A DNA stretch of 64,000 nt from NCBI GenBank assembly GCA_033664045.1, contig GCA_033664045.1_3674.1. One strand, 5' to 3'. Every line of letters begins with the position of its first letter. The first letter of the stretch is position 1. This DNA comes from a phage. Below the pieces are notes generated by a model. That model was not told the origin of the DNA. It saw only the letters and a program-made list of their open reading frames with translations, and did no database searches. Below are positions 48,589-56,225 of the stretch, one piece after another. The position numbers and the translations under genes were made by a program.

Positions 48589-48648
48589 TAAGATGTGAGT
48601 ATAAAGGGGAGGCACTCCTCCCCACAAAAACTAAGGAAGCACTAAACG

Positions 48649-48951
48649 ATGAAACGTTATAAACCATACACTTTTGAAATCGATTTCGAACTTGACGATA
48701 TGTTTACTGTAGAAGCTCAGGCAGTTGTCCAGTTGCCAGACCCGGAGTGCCGTGATTCTGATGTTGACTATTACGGATTTAGACAAATTACCGATGTGCA
48801 TGTTTACCACAACGGTGAAGAGGTGGACTTCCACCAACTGCCAAACGATTTGCGACACTCAATTTACAAACGTGCAGCCCGTGAACTAGAGTCCTATCTG
48901 GATGCAGCGACGACAGCAGCTGCATTTGCTGAAGAAGTGGGAGGTTTCTGA
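48649..48951 (+). CDS. hypothetical protein
   Basis: RBS AAGGAAG. Confidence 0.45.
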   Translation: MKRYKPYTFEIDFELDDMFTVEAQAVVQLPDPECRDSDVDYYGFRQITDVHVYHNGEEVDFHQLPNDLRHSIYKRAARELESYLDAATTAAAFAEEVGGF

Positions 48952-49361: not shown

Positions 49362-49844
49362 ATGTCAGATTTTATGTGGAAAGTAGGTTACGCAGCTCCT
49401 GAAATGTGTGAGGCTTGCTTTGTGAAAATAGGCCGCGAGGATATCGACAAAGTGATCCTTAAGTTTCGTGATGTAGCTGTGATCGGCAACCGAGTGCTTA
49501 AGCACTTAAAGAATCTGAAGCTCACCAAAAAGAAGTTCTTCGGACTTTTCGAAGAGAAAGTTGATGCTTGGACCCATTGCATTCAGGAAGCTAAATCTCA
49601 CTACAGTGCTATCGTTACCCCAGAACGGGTAGCCAAGATGGAAGGACTCATCAACAGCACAGAGTTTGAGTGCCTAAAGGCTGCCCTTGATAGTTATCCG
49701 AAATGCCTCAAGCACTTGGACAAGTATGTGGAAAAGGATGGGGAAATGTATCTCACCCTGGACGCATATTATGAGATGCAAGAAATTTTAAATTTAGATT
49801 TGACATTGGTATCCACCGAGTATACAATAGGTATCCGGGTTTAA
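49362..49844 (+). CDS. hypothetical protein
   Basis: RBS AAGGAGA. Confidence 0.45.
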   Translation: MSDFMWKVGYAAPEMCEACFVKIGREDIDKVILKFRDVAVIGNRVLKHLKNLKLTKKKFFGLFEEKVDAWTHCIQEAKSHYSAIVTPERVAKMEGLINSTEFECLKAALDSYPKCLKHLDKYVEKDGEMYLTLDAYYEMQEILNLDLTLVSTEYTIGIRV

Positions 49845-49849
49845 CACTA

Positions 49850-49878
49850 GGCCCTGCCCGAAAGGGTGGGGCTTTTTG
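49850..49878 (+). terminator. rho-independent terminator with GAAA tetraloop; exact copy of the hairpin at 60657
   Basis: gccctgcccGAAAgggtggggc followed by ttttt. Confidence 0.7.
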
Positions 49879-49895
49879 CATTAGGAGACAGCAAA

Positions 49896-50657
49896 TTGAA
49901 ATTTATCTACAAAGAACACTACCACAAAGGTGTTGTGTGGAGTCTATTTGACGGGTCTGGTGGTGCAGTCATTGACTGGGCAAAAGCTGGATATCTGTGC
50001 CTGTGCTTTAATGCAGAAGGTGCTGATCACGGCAGCTATGCAGAGGTGATAACCGATCATCCCAACATTCACTACGTGGATTATTGGATTGACCCATGGT
50101 TCCCTCAGGAAACTTTTTGCATGTACCCAGCTCCAGACTTTATTCTTGCATTTCCTCCGTGCACGCATTTAGCGGTATCAGGTGCCGCACATTTTAAGAA
50201 AAAGCTGGCTAAGGACCCCATGATCCAAATTAATGCTGTAAAGGATGCTCGGGTTGCGGAAGAACTGGGAGAGATTTACGATTGCCCGTGGCATGTAGAG
50301 AATCCTGTTGGTGTTATGTCCACACTGTGGCGCAAACCTGATTACCGTTTTCATCCTTCTGACTATGGCGGGTATTTACCGGAGGATGATGTAAACCCCT
50401 GGTTTCCTGAATTTATAGCTCCACGTGATGCCTATCCAAAAATAACTTGCGGCTGGATAGGTAATGGATTTATAATCCCGGCCACAAAACCTGTCCCGCA
50501 AATAGTTGACGCGGTTAGCGGGTATTCCATGCAACACGCCAAGCTGGGTGGAAAGAGTGCAAGAACGAAGATGATCCGAAGCCTTACACCACGTGGCTGG
50601 GCAAAAGCCGTATTCTTAGCAAACGAGCCTGTAGTAAGGAGAAGGGCCAATGGTTGA
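49896..50657 (+). CDS. compact DNA (cytosine-5) methyltransferase-like protein
   Basis: Motif I LFDGSGG, motif IV FPPCTHLAVSG, motif VI ENPVG, motif X-like WIGNGF; TTG start after AGGAGA (the track's GTG start sits inside the terminator hairpin). Confidence 0.5.
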   Translation: MKFIYKEHYHKGVVWSLFDGSGGAVIDWAKAGYLCLCFNAEGADHGSYAEVITDHPNIHYVDYWIDPWFPQETFCMYPAPDFILAFPPCTHLAVSGAAHFKKKLAKDPMIQINAVKDARVAEELGEIYDCPWHVENPVGVMSTLWRKPDYRFHPSDYGGYLPEDDVNPWFPEFIAPRDAYPKITCGWIGNGFIIPATKPVPQIVDAVSGYSMQHAKLGGKSARTKMIRSLTPRGWAKAVFLANEPVVRRRANG

Positions 50658-51321
50658 CTGGAGCAAGTATTTCACCTACAGTGACGGCAAACTGTTCTGG
50701 GCGTACACTGCAAAAGCCGGAAGGGGCAGGGTTATACATTACGCAGGTGAGGAGGCCACAGGTACAGATAAAAATGGCTATAGAGTGATATATGTGTCAG
50801 GTGTTGGGAGTGTTCGTAGGCATAGAATAGTTTGGGAGATGCATTACGGGGAGATACCCGAAGGACTTGTTGTGCGGCACAAGAACGACATAGCAGGCGA
50901 TGATAGGGTAGAGAACTTAGTCCTAGGTACACAGGGCGATAATGCACGAGACATGATCTACAGTGACAAACTGAGCATTAACAATACCTCAGGGTGTCGA
51001 GGTGTACGCTACCATAAAGGCATAAAAAGATGGATTGCATCTGTTGGAGACATATACTTAGGATGTTTTAAGACAAAAGAGGATGCAATTGCATGCAGAA
51101 AGTTATGGGAGAAGGGAAAATTCGTCCCGCAAGAGTTGGATGTTAGAAACACTAGCGGTGTAACAGGAGTGTTCTATGTGCCGAGCTCTGGAAGGTGGAG
51201 AGTAAGAGTGCAAAGCGGCAAAAAGAGAAAGAGCTATGGCACTTACAATACTTTAGAAGAAGCAAAAGCTGTAAGAGATAGAGTGATGAAAGAGATTGAG
51301 GAGTTTAAAGATGGGGAATAA
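50650..51321 (+). CDS. HNH endonuclease with AP2 domains (free-standing homing endonuclease type)
   Basis: HNH_3-like RRHRIVWEMHYGEIPEGLVVRHKNDIAGDDRVENL plus two AP2-like repeats (SGCRGVRYH..., SGVTGVFYV...). Confidence 0.7.
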   Translation: MVDWSKYFTYSDGKLFWAYTAKAGRGRVIHYAGEEATGTDKNGYRVIYVSGVGSVRRHRIVWEMHYGEIPEGLVVRHKNDIAGDDRVENLVLGTQGDNARDMIYSDKLSINNTSGCRGVRYHKGIKRWIASVGDIYLGCFKTKEDAIACRKLWEKGKFVPQELDVRNTSGVTGVFYVPSSGRWRVRVQSGKKRKSYGTYNTLEEAKAVRDRVMKEIEEFKDGE

Positions 51322-53389
51322 GTTTATATCCTCTGCATATAGCCGCTATGGAGAACCCAACCCGGTTGCAACAAGATACAAAAGTGGGGGCAGTATGAAA
51401 CGAGACTATCGTGATGAAAAAGAGGTTGAAACTGTAGAGACTGTTTTAGAAAATACTAAAATTGTCCCTGTTCCACAACAGAATATAGGGCTAATGGCTG
51501 CTCAATATTTTGGTGTGCGATCAGCATTATCCCAAGAAGATGGTGTGACAGTCACTGCAACATATTTTCCATATTATGACCGCTACGGAAATCTGTCTGG
51601 TTTCAAAAAACGTGATTGGTCTAAGCCGAAAGAGCAGAAAGGACACTGGTCTGTAGTAGGCATCGTAAAGGCTAACTCCCAGATGTTTGGTCAAAAGCTG
51701 TGTGCATCTTCCAACAACCGTAAGCAGATTAACGTTTGTGAGGGGGAAGGTGATGTTATTGCAGCATGGCAGGCTGCATATCAGATACAAGTAAAAGGGA
51801 TTCTCACCAACGCTAAAGCCCCGGCAAAGGTGAAGCAGTGGGCTAAAGAGGTCCAAGACGGGATCGACGCAGTTATCAACGGTGGTGATCTGGCAGGAAA
51901 ACCCTGCCTGCCTTTTGTTGGAATTAACTGTGGATGTGCAAACGCAGTAGATACTTTTGCAAACAATGAGAAGTTTATCCGTAGCTATGGAACAGTTGTG
52001 CTGGCAATGGATAACGATGCAGCTAACGAGGTAGAGAAGCAAAAACACGTCATCAAAGGTGTTGAGGCCACGCACAATATCGCAGCATTTTTGATGGCTG
52101 ATAACGTTTACCACGTAGAATACCCCGGTGAAGTAAACGACCCTGATGGTGTAAAAGATATCCGAGACATGCTGAAGGCTAAAAAGCTGGAAGATATTGT
52201 CAACATGTTCCGGCATCCTGTTAAATATGTACCTGATGCTGTGTCGGATTTAGAAGACTTCTCTATCGAGTCTTTGCGGAAAAAGACTTCCAACGGGGTA
52301 GATATCAGTGCAGAGTTCCCAAAACTGCAAAAAATGCTAAAAGGCTTGCACAAAGGGACACTCGTAATGCTTACAGGTCCATCAGGCGGCGGTAAAACAA
52401 CCGTGGCTAAAAAACTGGAACACTGTATTGCAAGATACCTAATGGACCCGACATGCCCGAAGGCCGATGACTATGAAGAGGATGATCGTCTATGTATGAT
52501 CCATCTTGAGGAGGATCCAGAGGAAGCAATTAACTCCTTGTATGCAAACCAGTTAGGGTTTGATGTTAAAGAGTTTGTTGAAGATCCTAGCCAGTTTTTA
52601 ACTGATCAAGAACACGCAGAGATTCACCAATCATGGGCAAAAGCTGGAAAAATCAAAGTGTTCAAACATTTCGGGTCTATTCCGGTGGACGAGTTGATTA
52701 CCAAGCTTAAGCAAATGGTTTGCCTGTACCATTGTCGTTATATTGTGCTGGATCACCTGTCCATGGTAATTTCAGGGCTTAATGTTAAGGATGAGCGAAA
52801 AGAACTGGACATGGCTATGACCCAACTGGCTGCGTTTTGTAAGCAGTTTAACGTGTTTATCTTGGTGATCGCTCACCTCAAACGTACAGAGATTGTGCCT
52901 CCTAAAGACAAGGATGGTAACCCGTTACCTTTCTGGTATCCTGTGCGAAAAGAGAATTTGCGAGGATCGGCTGGGCTTGAACAGTTGAGTTGGGTAGTCA
53001 TAGGTGTCGAGGCCGAAGAAATGGTGGATCGTTCTCGTGGGCGTGTCCGTTTAGTAGGTCTTAAAAACCGTCCAGCAAAAACATTGGGTATTGCAGACAC
53101 TTTGGTTATGGACCCACATACAGGTAAGTTCCATGATGCCAGTAATTGGTACTGGGACAAAGAAATGCAAATGTTTACAGATGGAGAAGGTGGGGAGGTT
53201 GTTTGGAGACCTCAGGCTATGTTTGAGGATCAGGAGCATGCAGTTGTAGAAACACCTATGGGCAAGGTTGTGGCTGATAAGGTTGTAACTCCTACTGTTA
53301 AGCCTGTTGACACGCAGGAAGACCTCCAGTACGATGATCCGTCCTCTGACCATGTTCCTGGTTTTGAGGATGATGAAACACCTTTTTAA
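51311..53389 (+). CDS. DNA primase-helicase (Toprim + DnaB-like helicase, T7 gp4-type)
   Basis: Toprim-like VCEGEGDVIAAW; Walker A LTGPSGGGKTT; start placed at the ATG at 51311 after AGGAG. Confidence 0.7.
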   Translation: MGNKFISSAYSRYGEPNPVATRYKSGGSMKRDYRDEKEVETVETVLENTKIVPVPQQNIGLMAAQYFGVRSALSQEDGVTVTATYFPYYDRYGNLSGFKKRDWSKPKEQKGHWSVVGIVKANSQMFGQKLCASSNNRKQINVCEGEGDVIAAWQAAYQIQVKGILTNAKAPAKVKQWAKEVQDGIDAVINGGDLAGKPCLPFVGINCGCANAVDTFANNEKFIRSYGTVVLAMDNDAANEVEKQKHVIKGVEATHNIAAFLMADNVYHVEYPGEVNDPDGVKDIRDMLKAKKLEDIVNMFRHPVKYVPDAVSDLEDFSIESLRKKTSNGVDISAEFPKLQKMLKGLHKGTLVMLTGPSGGGKTTVAKKLEHCIARYLMDPTCPKADDYEEDDRLCMIHLEEDPEEAINSLYANQLGFDVKEFVEDPSQFLTDQEHAEIHQSWAKAGKIKVFKHFGSIPVDELITKLKQMVCLYHCRYIVLDHLSMVISGLNVKDERKELDMAMTQLAAFCKQFNVFILVIAHLKRTEIVPPKDKDGNPLPFWYPVRKENLRGSAGLEQLSWVVIGVEAEEMVDRSRGRVRLVGLKNRPAKTLGIADTLVMDPHTGKFHDASNWYWDKEMQMFTDGEGGEVVWRPQAMFEDQEHAVVETPMGKVVADKVVTPTVKPVDTQEDLQYDDPSSDHVPGFEDDETPF

Positions 53390-53447: not shown

Positions 53448-56225
53448 ATGAGTATGTATAGCTTCGATTTTGAGGCCTCTGGGCTTTTGGAAGATCCAGA
53501 CCTTTATTATCACTGCGGCCTGTTTAAAGCGTTGAATAAGAACCGTTTTATGCTGTTCCTTCCTCTGAATGACCGCACACACTACTCCGAGGAGGATATA
53601 GAGAAGGCTAAGAACTTTATTCTGGCAAAGAAAACTCTTTATAAGGATTTTGAAGTTCGCATAGCAGATTTTTCGGAGTTGGAAGGGTGGCTTACAGGAA
53701 ATTCTGACTGGTCACCCACAGCTTTGAACTGCCACAACTGCTACAGCTACGACTTTATGCTGATGGAGAGATTGTCCGGTATTCATTTTGATATGTTCCG
53801 TGATCCTAAGTGTATGGGGACTATCAACGACCACCAGGTTAATCTGTTTGATACATTGGCTATGAGCCGAATTTTGTGGCCTGACCGACCTTTGCCAAAA
53901 GGTTGTCCAGACGCTGTATTCAACCCGGTTACTAAGAAAATGCAGCCTGTTGGTCCTCACGGCCTTATGGCATGGGGCTACGCTCTTGGTAACCAGAAAG
54001 TTCAAATTGATGACTGGCGCGATCTTCCGTTGTGGAAGTATGTGGATCGTGTATTCGAGGACGTTATCATCCAGGAGCTGCTCTGGAAAGAGCTGGTAGC
54101 GGAATCAAAAGGTGTATTCTACGGCAAATCTGACATGCAGAACTTTATGTACGATCCTGCCAAAGAGAAGCCGAAAGGATTCAAGAAGATCACCTGGAAG
54201 AACGCATTACGTCGAGGCATGCTGCAGCACTTCCTGATGGAGCTGCAGGCCCGTCAGGGCGTATACTTCGACATAGATGGAGCTATTGCTTTACGTGACC
54301 GTTGCGATGCGTGGATGAAAGAAATCGCTGATCGTGTTGAACCACAACTGCCTTTAAAAGAGCTGTCAATGTCTCAGCGGCCCAAGTTCCCTGAAAAGCC
54401 GTTTAACCAAGACGGGACAATCTCCAATAATGGTTGGAAATGGTTAAAAGATAAGCTTGGCTATCCTGTAGACATGAGCGCTTTAGAGTTCAAAGCCCCG
54501 CCTAAGAGAGCATTTACCTCTACAGGAGATGTCAGCAAGATGGGGATAAAATGGTGTGAAGAGATGGGATGCAAAGACCCCGATAAGATGGCTGATTTCT
54601 TGAGAGGCTATATTAAGGGCACTTCCACACCACACCCTTTGCCTAAAGAGCTGATGGATCAGGCAATAAGTGATCTACAGCAGAAGCGAATGCCGGACTG
54701 CAAGATACCTATGAAAATCAGCAACCAGGACGACATTAAGCGATACCTGATCAGTGCTGGCTGGCTTCCGACAATGTGGAGAACTAAGGATGTAACTAAA
54801 GACAGCAAGAAGAAAGCTTTACCTGATGCAGATGTTGATGCACGAGTATATGCATATATGGACGAGCTTTTGGAGTCAGAGTATTGTGACCTAATTATCA
54901 ACTTCTGGAACAAAACTGATGCTAAGTTCCAGACAACCGTGCACAAGTTCCGAAGCTTTCCTAACTCCGAAAGGATTAAAAAGGAAGTATTCGGGAAAAT
55001 ACGTAGAAAAGCTAGGGCACTTATTACTTCTCCGCAACTGAAAGATACGTTTGGACACCTATGCCCAAATCTTGAAAAATTGAACGGAGAGATGGCTAAA
55101 GATATCGTCTTGTGGTTATCATTGCGAAACCGCAGATCGGTCCTTGATCCAATCAAGGAGGATAAGGTTGATACTGGTCTTCTTAATCACCCACGCTTGA
55201 AGATTGACCATAAGCTTCCTGCTAAAAGTTCTGGATTAACAAACACTTCCCGACAGAAACACAGTATTTGTGCAAACATGCCTAAACCATCTCCTAAAGT
55301 GGTTATGGGTAAAGAGATGCGTAGTCTGTGGGGTGTTCCTCCAGGATACTTTGAGATCGGTATTGACGGGTCCAACTTAGAGCAGCTTATCGGGGCTTGG
55401 GGTGCCTTTGAGTTCGACAACGGCTTGTATTATGATGTTGTAAGTAACGGGGACGCACACCAAAACAATGCTGAGGCATATACAAAAGTAGCAGGCAGAG
55501 AGGTGTCTCGTAACGACGGTAAACCTATCACGTATGGGGTTATGTACGGGGCACAAAAAGATAAAGTTGCAGACATGCTGGATATCTCTCCAGAGTTGGG
55601 GCAAAGGGTAATCGATGCGCTTTGGGATGCCAACCCAGGTCTTAAGGGGCGTAAAGAGGATCTGGAGAAATTCTGGGAAGCAACTGGTAAGAAGTTTATC
55701 TACTCTTTTGATGGTCATGCCATCTGGACCCGATCTAAACACTCTTTACTTAATGCATACCAACAAAATGGCGGTGCATCGTTGTGTGATTTAGTTGGGA
55801 TACTCATGCACCACCAAATGGTGAGGCGTGGGTGGTACGATGAAGGTGTTCGTCGTATTATCTATTACCATGACGAATATCAGCTTCAAGTACCTGACAC
55901 ACCGAAGTATAAGACTGTGTACACCTTCGACACAATTGAAGAATTGGAAGCATTTAAGGCAGAGCAGGAGGCCAAACTTCATGTGTTCGACGGTCATAAG
56001 TACAAAAAGGCACGCAAGGATGAAAACGGAAACGAAGTGGTTGACAGAGACGGAAACACGGTGTACGATCCTATCTTGAACGATGACGGAAAGCTTGAAC
56101 TTATCTGGAGTCCTGTGGGCGAAATGGTGGTACATTGCTTCTGGCAAGCTTCTAAAATGATGGGAGTCCCGTTCCAGATCACAGGTGAATACTTGTGTGG
56201 TCGTAATTGGGGTGATTGTCACTAA
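53448..56225 (+). CDS. family A DNA polymerase with 3'-5' exonuclease domain
   Basis: Exo I FDFEASGL, motif A GIDGSNLEQ, motif B RNDGKPITYGVMYG, motif C YYHDEYQL. Confidence 0.85.
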   Translation: MSMYSFDFEASGLLEDPDLYYHCGLFKALNKNRFMLFLPLNDRTHYSEEDIEKAKNFILAKKTLYKDFEVRIADFSELEGWLTGNSDWSPTALNCHNCYSYDFMLMERLSGIHFDMFRDPKCMGTINDHQVNLFDTLAMSRILWPDRPLPKGCPDAVFNPVTKKMQPVGPHGLMAWGYALGNQKVQIDDWRDLPLWKYVDRVFEDVIIQELLWKELVAESKGVFYGKSDMQNFMYDPAKEKPKGFKKITWKNALRRGMLQHFLMELQARQGVYFDIDGAIALRDRCDAWMKEIADRVEPQLPLKELSMSQRPKFPEKPFNQDGTISNNGWKWLKDKLGYPVDMSALEFKAPPKRAFTSTGDVSKMGIKWCEEMGCKDPDKMADFLRGYIKGTSTPHPLPKELMDQAISDLQQKRMPDCKIPMKISNQDDIKRYLISAGWLPTMWRTKDVTKDSKKKALPDADVDARVYAYMDELLESEYCDLIINFWNKTDAKFQTTVHKFRSFPNSERIKKEVFGKIRRKARALITSPQLKDTFGHLCPNLEKLNGEMAKDIVLWLSLRNRRSVLDPIKEDKVDTGLLNHPRLKIDHKLPAKSSGLTNTSRQKHSICANMPKPSPKVVMGKEMRSLWGVPPGYFEIGIDGSNLEQLIGAWGAFEFDNGLYYDVVSNGDAHQNNAEAYTKVAGREVSRNDGKPITYGVMYGAQKDKVADMLDISPELGQRVIDALWDANPGLKGRKEDLEKFWEATGKKFIYSFDGHAIWTRSKHSLLNAYQQNGGASLCDLVGILMHHQMVRRGWYDEGVRRIIYYHDEYQLQVPDTPKYKTVYTFDTIEELEAFKAEQEAKLHVFDGHKYKKARKDENGNEVVDRDGNTVYDPILNDDGKLELIWSPVGEMVVHCFWQASKMMGVPFQITGEYLCGRNWGDCH

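Follow-up and report, generated by a model that had tools for sequence, protein, structure and literature searches.

The replication module of the phage genome analyzed here very probably holds two unrelated elements side by side, namely a compact orphan C5 methyltransferase (PHROG 757) and a selfish HNH homing endonuclease located at the junction of the methylase and primase-helicase genes. The analyzed stretch of DNA (64,000 nt, hereafter the window) is a Vequintavirus (rV5-like) genome, and rV5-like coliphages all carry an unusually small C5 methyltransferase before the primase-helicase gene. It should be stressed that the methylase observation is real and, at the same time, ordinary, being already known and annotated: in the BASEL annotations the counterpart of the gene (bas49_0074, 762 bp) is labeled as "Dcm-like C5 cytosine methyltransferase".

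The methylase ORF (positions 49896-50657, plus strand) encodes a protein of 253 aa and begins with a TTG codon, which is also the start in the BASEL annotations, while the program-called ORF begins at GTG 49866, within a hairpin. The earlier note on this DNA placed the TTG start directly behind a terminator, and a terminator-like hairpin with a T-run indeed precedes position 49896, with a folding energy of -24.5 kcal/mol and a z-score of only -1.83. The predicted promoter sits inside the 3' end of the ORF preceding the methylase, and the segment 49800-49899 shows not a single mismatch in any of 6 relatives (1-10 mismatches in the adjacent 100-bp bins). The gene order and both gene overlaps described in that note were found as claimed: the methylase stop and the HNH start overlap by 8 nt (50650-50657, in ATGGTTGA), and the HNH stop and the primase-helicase start by 11 nt (51311-51321, in ATGGGGAATAA). 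The start of the latter gene had to be corrected, as annotated relatives and the junction alignment indicate ATG 51311 (MGNKF...) and not the program-called TTG 51296. The 8-nt overlap makes translational coupling of the methylase to the gene behind it probable. The features of the locus are collected in Table 1.

Table 1. Features of the methylase/HNH/primase-helicase locus (positions within the window; residue numbers refer to the respective proteins).
Feature	Position (nt)	Strand	Basis
Predicted sigma-70-like promoter (TTGACA, 17-nt spacer, TACAAT)	49800..49828	+	11/12 matches
Terminator-like hairpin (11 pairs, 7 of them GC; GAAA loop), followed by TTTTT	49849-49874, with T-run to 49879	+	Folding
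Shine-Dalgarno AGGAG	49883-49887	+	8 nt before TTG 49896, read from sequence
Methylase motif I (F18-D-G-S-G-G23), SAM-binding loop	49947..49964	+	Aligned to FSGAGG of M.HaeIII
Methylase motif IV (P87-P88-C89), predicted catalytic cysteine	50154..50162	+	Profile alignments
Methylase motif VI (E135-N136-P137)	50298..50306	+	E135 and P137 invariant, N136 95% (84 members)
Block D178-Y180-K182-T184-W187-GNGF-P195, invariant core where a TRD would be	50427..50480	+	Conservation
Candidate specificity loop, residues ~196-216	50481..50543	+	Sole hypervariable stretch of the C-terminal half
R228-S-L-T-P-R-G234, motif IX-like (cf. RRLTPRE of E. coli Dcm)	50577..50597	+	Conservation
Free-standing HNH homing endonuclease, 223 aa (HNH_3 and two AP2)	50650..51321	+	Pfam; PHROG 99, E 2.7e-53
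HNH_3 domain, residues 56-100	50815..50949	+	PF13392, E 5e-17
C-terminal AP2 domain, residues 169-217	51154..51300	+	PF00847, E 5.8e-11, two stretches
DNA primase/helicase gene	51311..53389	+	PHROG 239, E 1.3e-159
Divergent tract at the primase-helicase 5' end, likely homing-site/immunity region	51311..51400	+	23 mismatches per 100 bp

The methylase has the class I SAM-methyltransferase fold with C5-methyltransferase topology, and the motif residues named in the earlier note (FDGSGG, PPC, ENP, and GNGF) are all present. Motif I was also aligned with FAGGGG of CmoX, and FDGSG falls on motif I of DNMT2 as well in the profile alignments. The cysteine of PPC, conserved in 99% of 84 diverse family members, aligns with motif IV in profile alignments, in which PPC stands against PPCQ of HaeIII, PPCS of CmoX, and PPCQ of DNMT2 (the PDB matches being marginal); in non-significant hhalign comparisons, P88-C89 was also found opposite PC of Dcm and HhaI. 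Motif VI is located at the expected distance past motif IV and is colinear with ENV of Dcm in a permissive, likewise non-significant hhalign run.

The C-terminal half is less canonical. G189-N-G-F192, which had been proposed as an X-like motif, lies within the invariant block and precedes RSLTPRG, itself followed by the C-terminal helix (residues 233-252), while in canonical C5 methyltransferases motif IX is followed by motif X; the assignment of GNGF to motif X was therefore set aside as doubtful, with the proviso that the likeness of RSLTPRG to motif IX of Dcm/HhaI is not statistically significant. Neither motif X (GN[AS]V) nor motif VIII (QxRxR) was located in the methylase, and DYGGYLP of this protein resembles DYG(V/I)PQ, which precedes QxRxR in HhaI and Dcm. 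A canonical target-recognition domain (TRD; typically at least 80 aa) between motifs VIII and IX is absent from the methylase. The claim that there is almost no room for a TRD thus holds, as the single variable stretch, flanked by invariant blocks, comprises 13-37 aa across the 84 diverse members and about 20-23 aa here.

The relationship to the classical C5 methyltransferases proved to be distant. The methylase itself matches no Pfam (PF00145, gathering score 22 bits) or NCBIfam profile, and the PF00145 link is visible only through its relatives: 27 of the 46 sequences of a family alignment matched PF00145 weakly, within profile positions 4-94 only (a region that includes motif I), and three of these 27 passed the gathering score (24.7-28.5 bits). 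When PDB was searched by sequence, using the protein alone as well as two profiles of the family, the matches were marginal (E 0.37-1.2). Comparison of the family profile by hhalign with E. coli Dcm, with Dcm and HhaI fragments, and with a 13-sequence HhaI/Dcm alignment yielded probabilities below 1%, with motifs I, IV, and VI colinear in those non-significant runs. The HhaI-seeded homologue search returned relatives of at least 71% identity only, and the resulting profile was too shallow; a local HMM of the motif IX-X C-termini of Dcm/HhaI, compared with the compact family, gave nothing but insignificant matches.

The protein belongs to a large family. It matches PHROG 757 ("DNA methyltransferase") over its full length (residues 2-251, E 5.6e-87), its 3553 homologues are all of about 220-260 aa, and hundreds of proteins of 200-280 aa match it from end to end. 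At the level of 50% identity, 2101 clusters match the family at E<1e-3, and the best 150 of them contain mostly proteins of ~200-280 aa, together with a few longer, multi-domain ones. The compact family was found in 1506 phage records, and in 117 records the methylase is present at the same locus with at least 95% amino-acid identity. With dN/dS values of 0-0.04 in 11 comparisons, the methylase is, judging by its distribution and divergence, a core gene of the vequintavirus replication module under strong purifying selection.

An experimentally studied relative is available. Over its full length the methylase shares 54% identity with bas06_0055, encoded by a 711-bp gene of phage KarlJaspers (Bas06, Drexlerviridae). 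The K42 orthologue of bas06_0055 makes 5mC on msDNA, as determined by LC-MS in E. coli MG1655, where a dcm+ host alone left the msDNA unmethylated, and the K42/KarlJaspers Dcm is the trigger of retron Ec86/Eco1 (bioRxiv 10.1101/2023.08.16.553469). The K42 Dcm mutant C82A/E128A/K175A/K176A, in which the four residues were mutated together only, is inactive, and the CCWGG specificity given in that paper was assumed from E. coli Dcm, not measured (bioRxiv 10.1101/2023.08.16.553469). C82, E128, and K175 of the K42 enzyme correspond to C89, E135, and K182 of the methylase, while K176 is replaced by I183, at a position conserved in less than 50% of the family. Residue 39, an Asp in 93% of the wider family, is Asn in the methylase as it is in the active K42/KarlJaspers enzyme. 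The C5 fold, the alignment of PPC with motif IV, and the 5mC product of the 54%-identical homologue together speak for the orphan C5 methyltransferase reading put forward in the earlier note; the failure of the PPC cysteine to align with motif IV, which the note had named as a refutation, was not observed.

According to the standard C5 mechanism, C89 would attack C6 of a flipped-out cytosine, E135 would protonate cytosine N3, and SAM, held by the FDGSGG loop, would give its methyl group to C5, after which beta-elimination would free the enzyme. The invariant block D178...P195 and the short loop 196-216 may together stand in for the canonical TRD of 80-100 aa. We infer that the target of the methylase is most likely a short site in replicating phage DNA; CCWGG, taken over from the K42 phage Dcm by analogy, may serve as a working guess. 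Methylation there would weaken restriction of the EcoRII type and could incidentally be detected by retron Eco1/Ec86. Vequintaviruses are "exceptionally susceptible" to restriction-modification (RM) systems (PMC8594841), so any protection by the methylase would be narrow. A literature search yielded neither methylomes nor restriction data from vequintaviruses; for Klebsiella phages EcoRII resistance is on record, with host Dcm as a confounder (PMC3620542).

The genomes themselves gave little indication of the target site. CCWGG occurs 94 times, versus expectations of 86 (base composition) and 147 (Markov model). In a scan for 5mC deamination, based on polymorphism across 46 kb of eight vequintavirus genomes and stratified by synonymous class, no methylation-like motif stood out: the inner C of CCWGG had an observed/expected ratio of 1.39 (z 1.63), a value which host Dcm would confound, and the inner C of CCNGG a ratio of 1.54 (z 2.58; rank 44 of 1066 contexts). 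A K-12 host already has Dcm.

It is also conceivable, but rather unlikely, that the compact Dcm-like proteins represent a minimal C5 methyltransferase architecture outside PF00145, perhaps with different DNA recognition and a role other than anti-EcoRII protection. The variable loop of ~20 aa and the invariant D-Y-K-T-W block may here replace the TRD, motifs VIII and X being unrecognisable, and recognition may involve DNMT3-like oligomers, a very short or relaxed site, or hairpin or single-stranded replication intermediates.

The second gene of the junction has a different history. The HNH and AP2 domains recognized by the earlier note were confirmed by Pfam, and a first AP2-like stretch was located at about residues 113-160 of the HNH protein. 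The combination of HNH_3 and AP2 occurs in 1194 phage records and is usual for homing endonucleases. Comparison with related phages, which the note had suggested as a check on the presence or absence of the gene, showed that it occurs in only 5 phage records, versus about 120 without it, and is missing in 9 of the 12 inspected relatives. In the HNH-less genomes the methylase stop is joined directly to the primase ATG, and the insertion junctions are exact. The gene has no paralogue within the 64-kb window, the closest ones elsewhere in vequintaviruses reach only 36-37% identity, and its dN/dS is 0.04-0.11. When divergence was measured against the HNH-less phages JeffSchatz and isim (baseline 0-5 mismatches per 100 bp), a second divergent tract with 18-19 mismatches was found at 51600-51700, in addition to that at the primase-helicase 5' end; the elevated divergence is confined to the downstream side of the HNH gene, with no extra divergence on the upstream, methylase side.

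Very probably, the HNH gene entered a minority lineage precisely between the methylase and primase genes. Overlapping stop and start codons were thereby recreated on both sides, and the GAGGAG ribosome-binding site of the primase gene came with the insert. The endonuclease presumably cuts the HNH-less allele near the primase-helicase 5' end and spreads by recombinational repair.

Several other explanations of the locus were considered. In the first place, the methylase could be a dead or repurposed methyltransferase fold, acting as a DNA-binding accessory of the primase-helicase or as a decoy, which would fit the lack of any Pfam or NCBIfam match, the presence of N39 and I183 (in place of the common Asp and of K176 of K42, respectively), and the tight coupling of the gene to that of the primase-helicase in every genome. 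We regard this as very unlikely, as C89, E135, N136, P137, K182, and the FDGSGG loop are all kept and N39 is shared with the active K42/KarlJaspers enzyme; the dN/dS of 0-0.04 reflects constraint on the whole protein and is not, on its own, proof of catalysis. Still lower is the probability of a hypermodification enzyme, raised as an option in the earlier note, i.e., a C5-carboxymethyltransferase resembling CmoX, or the enzyme of the first step of cytosine hypermodification. CmoX (PDB 8yf3), a phage DNA cytosine C5-carboxymethyltransferase of 372 aa, uses Cx-SAM via Arg350, has the SPPC motif, and as a rule shows linkage to CmoA and a ligase (PMC12783734). In the methylase SPPC is replaced by FPPC (F86 is 92% conserved), Arg350, a residue of motif X, has no identifiable counterpart, and the annotations of relatives show neither a ligase nor CmoA over about 20 kb around the gene. 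The product of the 54%-identical K42 enzyme in E. coli MG1655 was plain 5mC by LC-MS, and hypermodification is also unlikely because vequintaviruses are so exceptionally RM-sensitive (PMC8594841). This explanation was rejected.

The same applies to a mobile cassette of methylase and nuclease, also proposed in the earlier note, whether conceived as an RM-like or as a self-protecting homing unit; its likelihood is minimal. The two genes adjoin, with the 8-nt overlap, and at least one relative of the methylase in another phage family adjoins an annotated restriction endonuclease (Pantoea phage AH01). Against this, the methylase occupies the locus in 117 records while the HNH gene is found in 5, methylase and primase genes are joined directly where it is missing, divergence is increased on its downstream side only, and its architecture is that of ordinary homing endonucleases. 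The two genes are thus not a cassette, because the methylase is a core gene and the HNH gene, the only mobile one of the two, is present in 5 records with a divergent downstream tract. No more probable is methylation of RNA instead of DNA (m5C in tRNA or rRNA, as in DNMT2-like enzymes), which was rejected as well.

The preferred reading, a compact orphan C5 methyltransferase beside a selfish homing endonuclease, has consequences for annotation. The correct label of the first gene is compact Dcm-like C5 methyltransferase, despite the silence of Pfam and NCBIfam, and its neighbor should be called a homing endonuclease, functionally unconnected to the methylase. Coliphages and Klebsiella phages of therapy and model collections very often carry a member of the compact family, which is known to set off retron Eco1, so a record of intact copies helps to forecast restriction evasion as well as retron sensitivity. 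The scientific question is how an enzyme with almost no TRD picks its site, and which site this is.

Compared with the PF00145 enzymes M.HhaI, M.HaeIII, and E. coli Dcm, the vequintavirus methylase is ~75-220 residues shorter, lacks the canonical TRD, shows no recognisable QxRxR or GN[AS]V, and remains below the Pfam threshold. The catalytic domains of DNMT3A/DNMT3B show only 12-15% identity to it; these are eukaryotic enzymes, working in DNMT3L/DNMT3 oligomers on CpG. It differs from CmoX in that SPPC, Arg350, and the CmoA/ligase linkage were not found (the last in the ~20-kb neighborhood of relatives). With regard to the second gene, the site at the methylase/primase junction, found in only 5 records, sets it apart from other HNH-AP2 homing endonucleases (PHROG 99), with which it shares the architecture, the sporadic presence, the insertion between conserved genes, and the divergent flank. 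The K42/KarlJaspers Dcm comes from another phage family and another genomic context, has Lys (K176) where the methylase has Ile, and differs in the sequence of the loop 196-216; the 5mC product was shown for the K42 homologue. Both, however, belong to the compact family, are of similar length (236 vs. 253 aa), are encoded by orphan genes of lytic coliphages, and keep the catalytic Cys, the Glu of ENP, and the first Lys of the KK pair.

The 4.1 kb around the methylase gene were matched by 121 phage records, nearly all of Vequintavirus (rV5-like myoviruses, 96-97% identity), with Phage 203/206 and the BASEL phages EmilHeitz and HeinrichReichert as the top full-length matches. The gene order annotated in those records is hypothetical, hypothetical, "Dcm-like C5 cytosine methyltransferase", "putative homing endonuclease", "DNA primase/helicase", and "DNA polymerase"; public genomes already carry an annotation of the methylase, and there has been some experimental work on its family. 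Dozens of MG0656xx records (e.g., L014-L018), flagged UNVERIFIED and named "Campylobacter phage" (host C. jejuni), share 93-96% identity with vequintaviruses of E. coli over this region, and their host labels are probably wrong.

Features of the replication locus and its upstream region
Feature	Position (strand)	Properties	Basis
Site of absent Mod-like cassette	48644-48652		
Conserved 100-bp segment	49800-49899		
Hairpin	49849-49874		
Methylase ORF	49896-50657 (+)	253 aa, TTG start	sequence and annotators' start
HNH gene	50650-51321 (+)		
Primase-helicase gene	51311-53389 (+)	true start ATG 51311 (MGNKF...)	
DNA polymerase gene	53448-56225	uninterrupted, 925 aa	

The ORF, motifs and overlaps described in the earlier note are all present, and the feature is real. 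The mechanical ORF start of the methylase (GTG 49866) is located within the hairpin; the TTG, also chosen by the annotators, lies 8 nt downstream of AGGAG. The methylase and HNH genes overlap at stop and start (ATGGTTGA), as do the HNH and primase genes (ATGGGGAATAA); the mechanical TTG 51296 of the primase-helicase is incorrect. The hairpin with its T-run scored as terminator-like (-24.5 kcal/mol, z-score only -1.83). The 100-bp segment containing it is 100% identical in six of six other vequintaviruses (1-10 mismatches in adjoining bins) and holds a near-consensus sigma-70 promoter (TTGACA-17-TACAAT), followed about 20 nt 3' by the hairpin and then by the methylase ribosome-binding site. This predicted promoter, running straight into a terminator-like hairpin, could represent an attenuator or a 5'-UTR stabiliser.

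The 253-aa protein itself gave no match in Pfam or NCBIfam, including the PF00145 profile proposed earlier as a check, which was reached only weakly through its relatives: 27 of 46 sequences in a family alignment matched it, three above the 22-bit gathering score, and exclusively at profile positions 4-94 (motifs I to IV). PHROG 757 ("DNA methyltransferase") matched over the full length (E 5.6e-87). The members of this family are many and of uniformly small size (3553 homologues, about 220-260 aa each) and occur in 1506 records of Escherichia, Klebsiella, Salmonella and other phages; when clustered at 50% identity, 2101 clusters matched at E<1e-3, and the best 150 were mostly about 200-280 aa long, a few longer multi-domain proteins being among them. 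The compact module is also a domain of far larger phage proteins, such as the BFVD matches A0A6J5SE15_1 (1397 aa) and A0A6J5NPY6_2 (1126 aa), as well as P0249, P0261 and P0268 (401-563 aa); one of the larger proteins is annotated as Helicase/UvrB N-terminal. The methylase is present in 117 records at at least 95% amino-acid identity and, compared with 11 other vequintaviruses, shows 10-28 synonymous and only 0-3 non-synonymous differences (dN/dS 0-0.04).

The AlphaFold2 model, for which 46 sequences were used, was confident (pLDDT 90.4, pTM 0.89), and its Foldseek search agreed with a C5-methyltransferase fold. The quoted motifs were located at residues 18-23 (FDGSGG), 87-89 (PPC), 135-137 (ENP) and 189-192 (GNGF). 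Family profiles aligned FDGSG on motif I and PPC on the Pro-Cys of M.HaeIII, CmoX and DNMT2; the cysteine therefore falls on motif IV, and the objection that it might lie elsewhere falls away. Across 84 diverse family members aligned at a mean column identity of 29%, (near-)invariant residues were L17, G32, F86-P87-C89, G96, K103, E135-N136-P137, P154, D178, Y180, K182, T184, W187, P195, R228, P232 and G234. The only hypervariable stretch of the C-terminal half is residues 196-216, spanning 13-37 aa among these members, so there is indeed, as initially noticed, almost no room for a target-recognition domain. GNGF sits in a conserved block N-terminal to this loop and to the motif IX-like RSLTPRG (E. 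coli Dcm: RRLTPRE), and thus does not occupy the motif X position first assigned to it. Motifs VIII and X were not located in the protein, hhalign and a local C-terminal HMM giving no significance.

The HNH gene, whose product carries HNH_3 (E 5e-17) and AP2 (E 5.8e-11, two stretches) domains, is a mobile element in its own right. The presence/absence comparison suggested earlier found its DNA in only five records, while it was missing from nine of the 12 relatives inspected; there is no paralogue within the window, and its nearest relatives, HNH genes located elsewhere in vequintaviruses, are 36-37% identical. Genomes that lack the HNH gene have the stop of the methylase directly overlapping the primase ATG (ATGGGAAGTAA); the insertion re-forms stop/start overlaps at both ends and supplies GAGGAG 5' of the primase ATG. 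Between genomes with and without the gene, there are 0-5 mismatches per 100 bp upstream of the insertion and 23 in the first 100 bp downstream (51300-51400). This downstream-sided divergence is what a homing site or an immunity region would be expected to show under co-conversion. Therefore, a joint methylase-nuclease cassette, the mobile unit envisaged in the earlier note, was rejected on the sporadic distribution, the HNH-less junctions and the flank divergence. Within the primase-helicase gene, 51600-51700 shows 18-19 mismatches per 100 bp relative to HNH-less JeffSchatz and isim; this block lies about 300 bp from the insertion, and the stretch between the two divergent blocks is near-identical, an arrangement that suggests mosaic co-conversion tracts. 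The dN/dS of the HNH gene is 0.04-0.11, suggesting an active endonuclease.

In V18 (L007, Escherichia phage, NC_041937), positions ~2880-2900 correspond to 50643-51312 of the window. V18 has flanking alleles of the HNH-carrying type, and the HNH gene is precisely absent along with the primase ATG (...AAGGAGA/GGGGAATAAG...); the annotation gives its methylase and primase in truncated form. The junction reflects either excision or an error of assembly. Upstream of the methylase, the window phage, likewise HeinrichReichert and AlexBoehm, is without a 1.33-kb cassette encoding a type III Mod-like N6-adenine methyltransferase, present between the same two genes in EmilHeitz, JeffSchatz, isim, V18 and Phage 203. 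EmilHeitz, HeinrichReichert and AlexBoehm have a DNA polymerase gene annotated as two joined pieces around another homing endonuclease gene, a second polymorphic selfish element of the same replication module.

Among the proposed roles, that of an orphan methylase is backed by the PF00145-linked family, the C5-type motifs I and IV, and a 5mC-forming homologue, the Dcm of phage K42. A base-hypermodification enzyme is unsupported, given the 5mC product of this homologue and the BASEL study's description of Vequintavirinae as "exceptionally susceptible" to RM systems (PMC8594841); this susceptibility speaks against any global hypermodification of cytosine and agrees with a methylase that is site-specific and of narrow protective value. 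CmoX was the second structural match, hence a CmoX-type carboxymethyltransferase was also weighed; it is disfavoured because the homologue forms 5mC, the protein has FPPC where CmoX has SPPC, a counterpart of Arg350 could not be identified, and neither CmoA nor a ligase is annotated among the neighbours.

The protein would be a minimal enzyme lying beyond the Pfam model. In the search for its target, CCWGG counts were uninformative. Polymorphisms over 46 kb in eight genomes were also scanned for hot spots of deamination, with stratification by synonymous class; the O/E of the inner C was 1.39 (z 1.63) in CCWGG and 1.54 (z 2.58) in CCNGG, the latter ranking only 44th of 1066 contexts. These in silico attempts failed to yield a target. 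EcoRII resistance was reported for DNA of the Klebsiella phage KP36, whose genome was described as having no cytosine methylase (PMC3620542). KP36-like (Webervirus) phages do contain members of the compact family, and the earlier conclusion that a host enzyme causes this resistance may need revisiting.

The closest comparison is with K42, whose genome is 95.4% identical to KarlJaspers/Bas06 and whose 711-bp "Dcm" was identified as the trigger of retron Ec86 (bioRxiv 10.1101/2023.08.16.553469). According to the same study, this Dcm raised 5mC on msDNA by LC-MS, and its C82A/E128A/K175A/K176A mutant loses the effect; CCWGG as its target was taken over from E. coli Dcm rather than measured, the only support being the mutated CCTGG of the msDNA stem. 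The KarlJaspers gene bas06_0055 (711 bp) encodes a product 54% identical to the 253-aa protein over the full length, and C82, E128 and K175 of K42 Dcm correspond to C89, E135 and K182, whereas K176 is replaced by I183. This identity and residue correspondence place the protein, as judged from sequence, in a family with demonstrated 5mC-forming activity.
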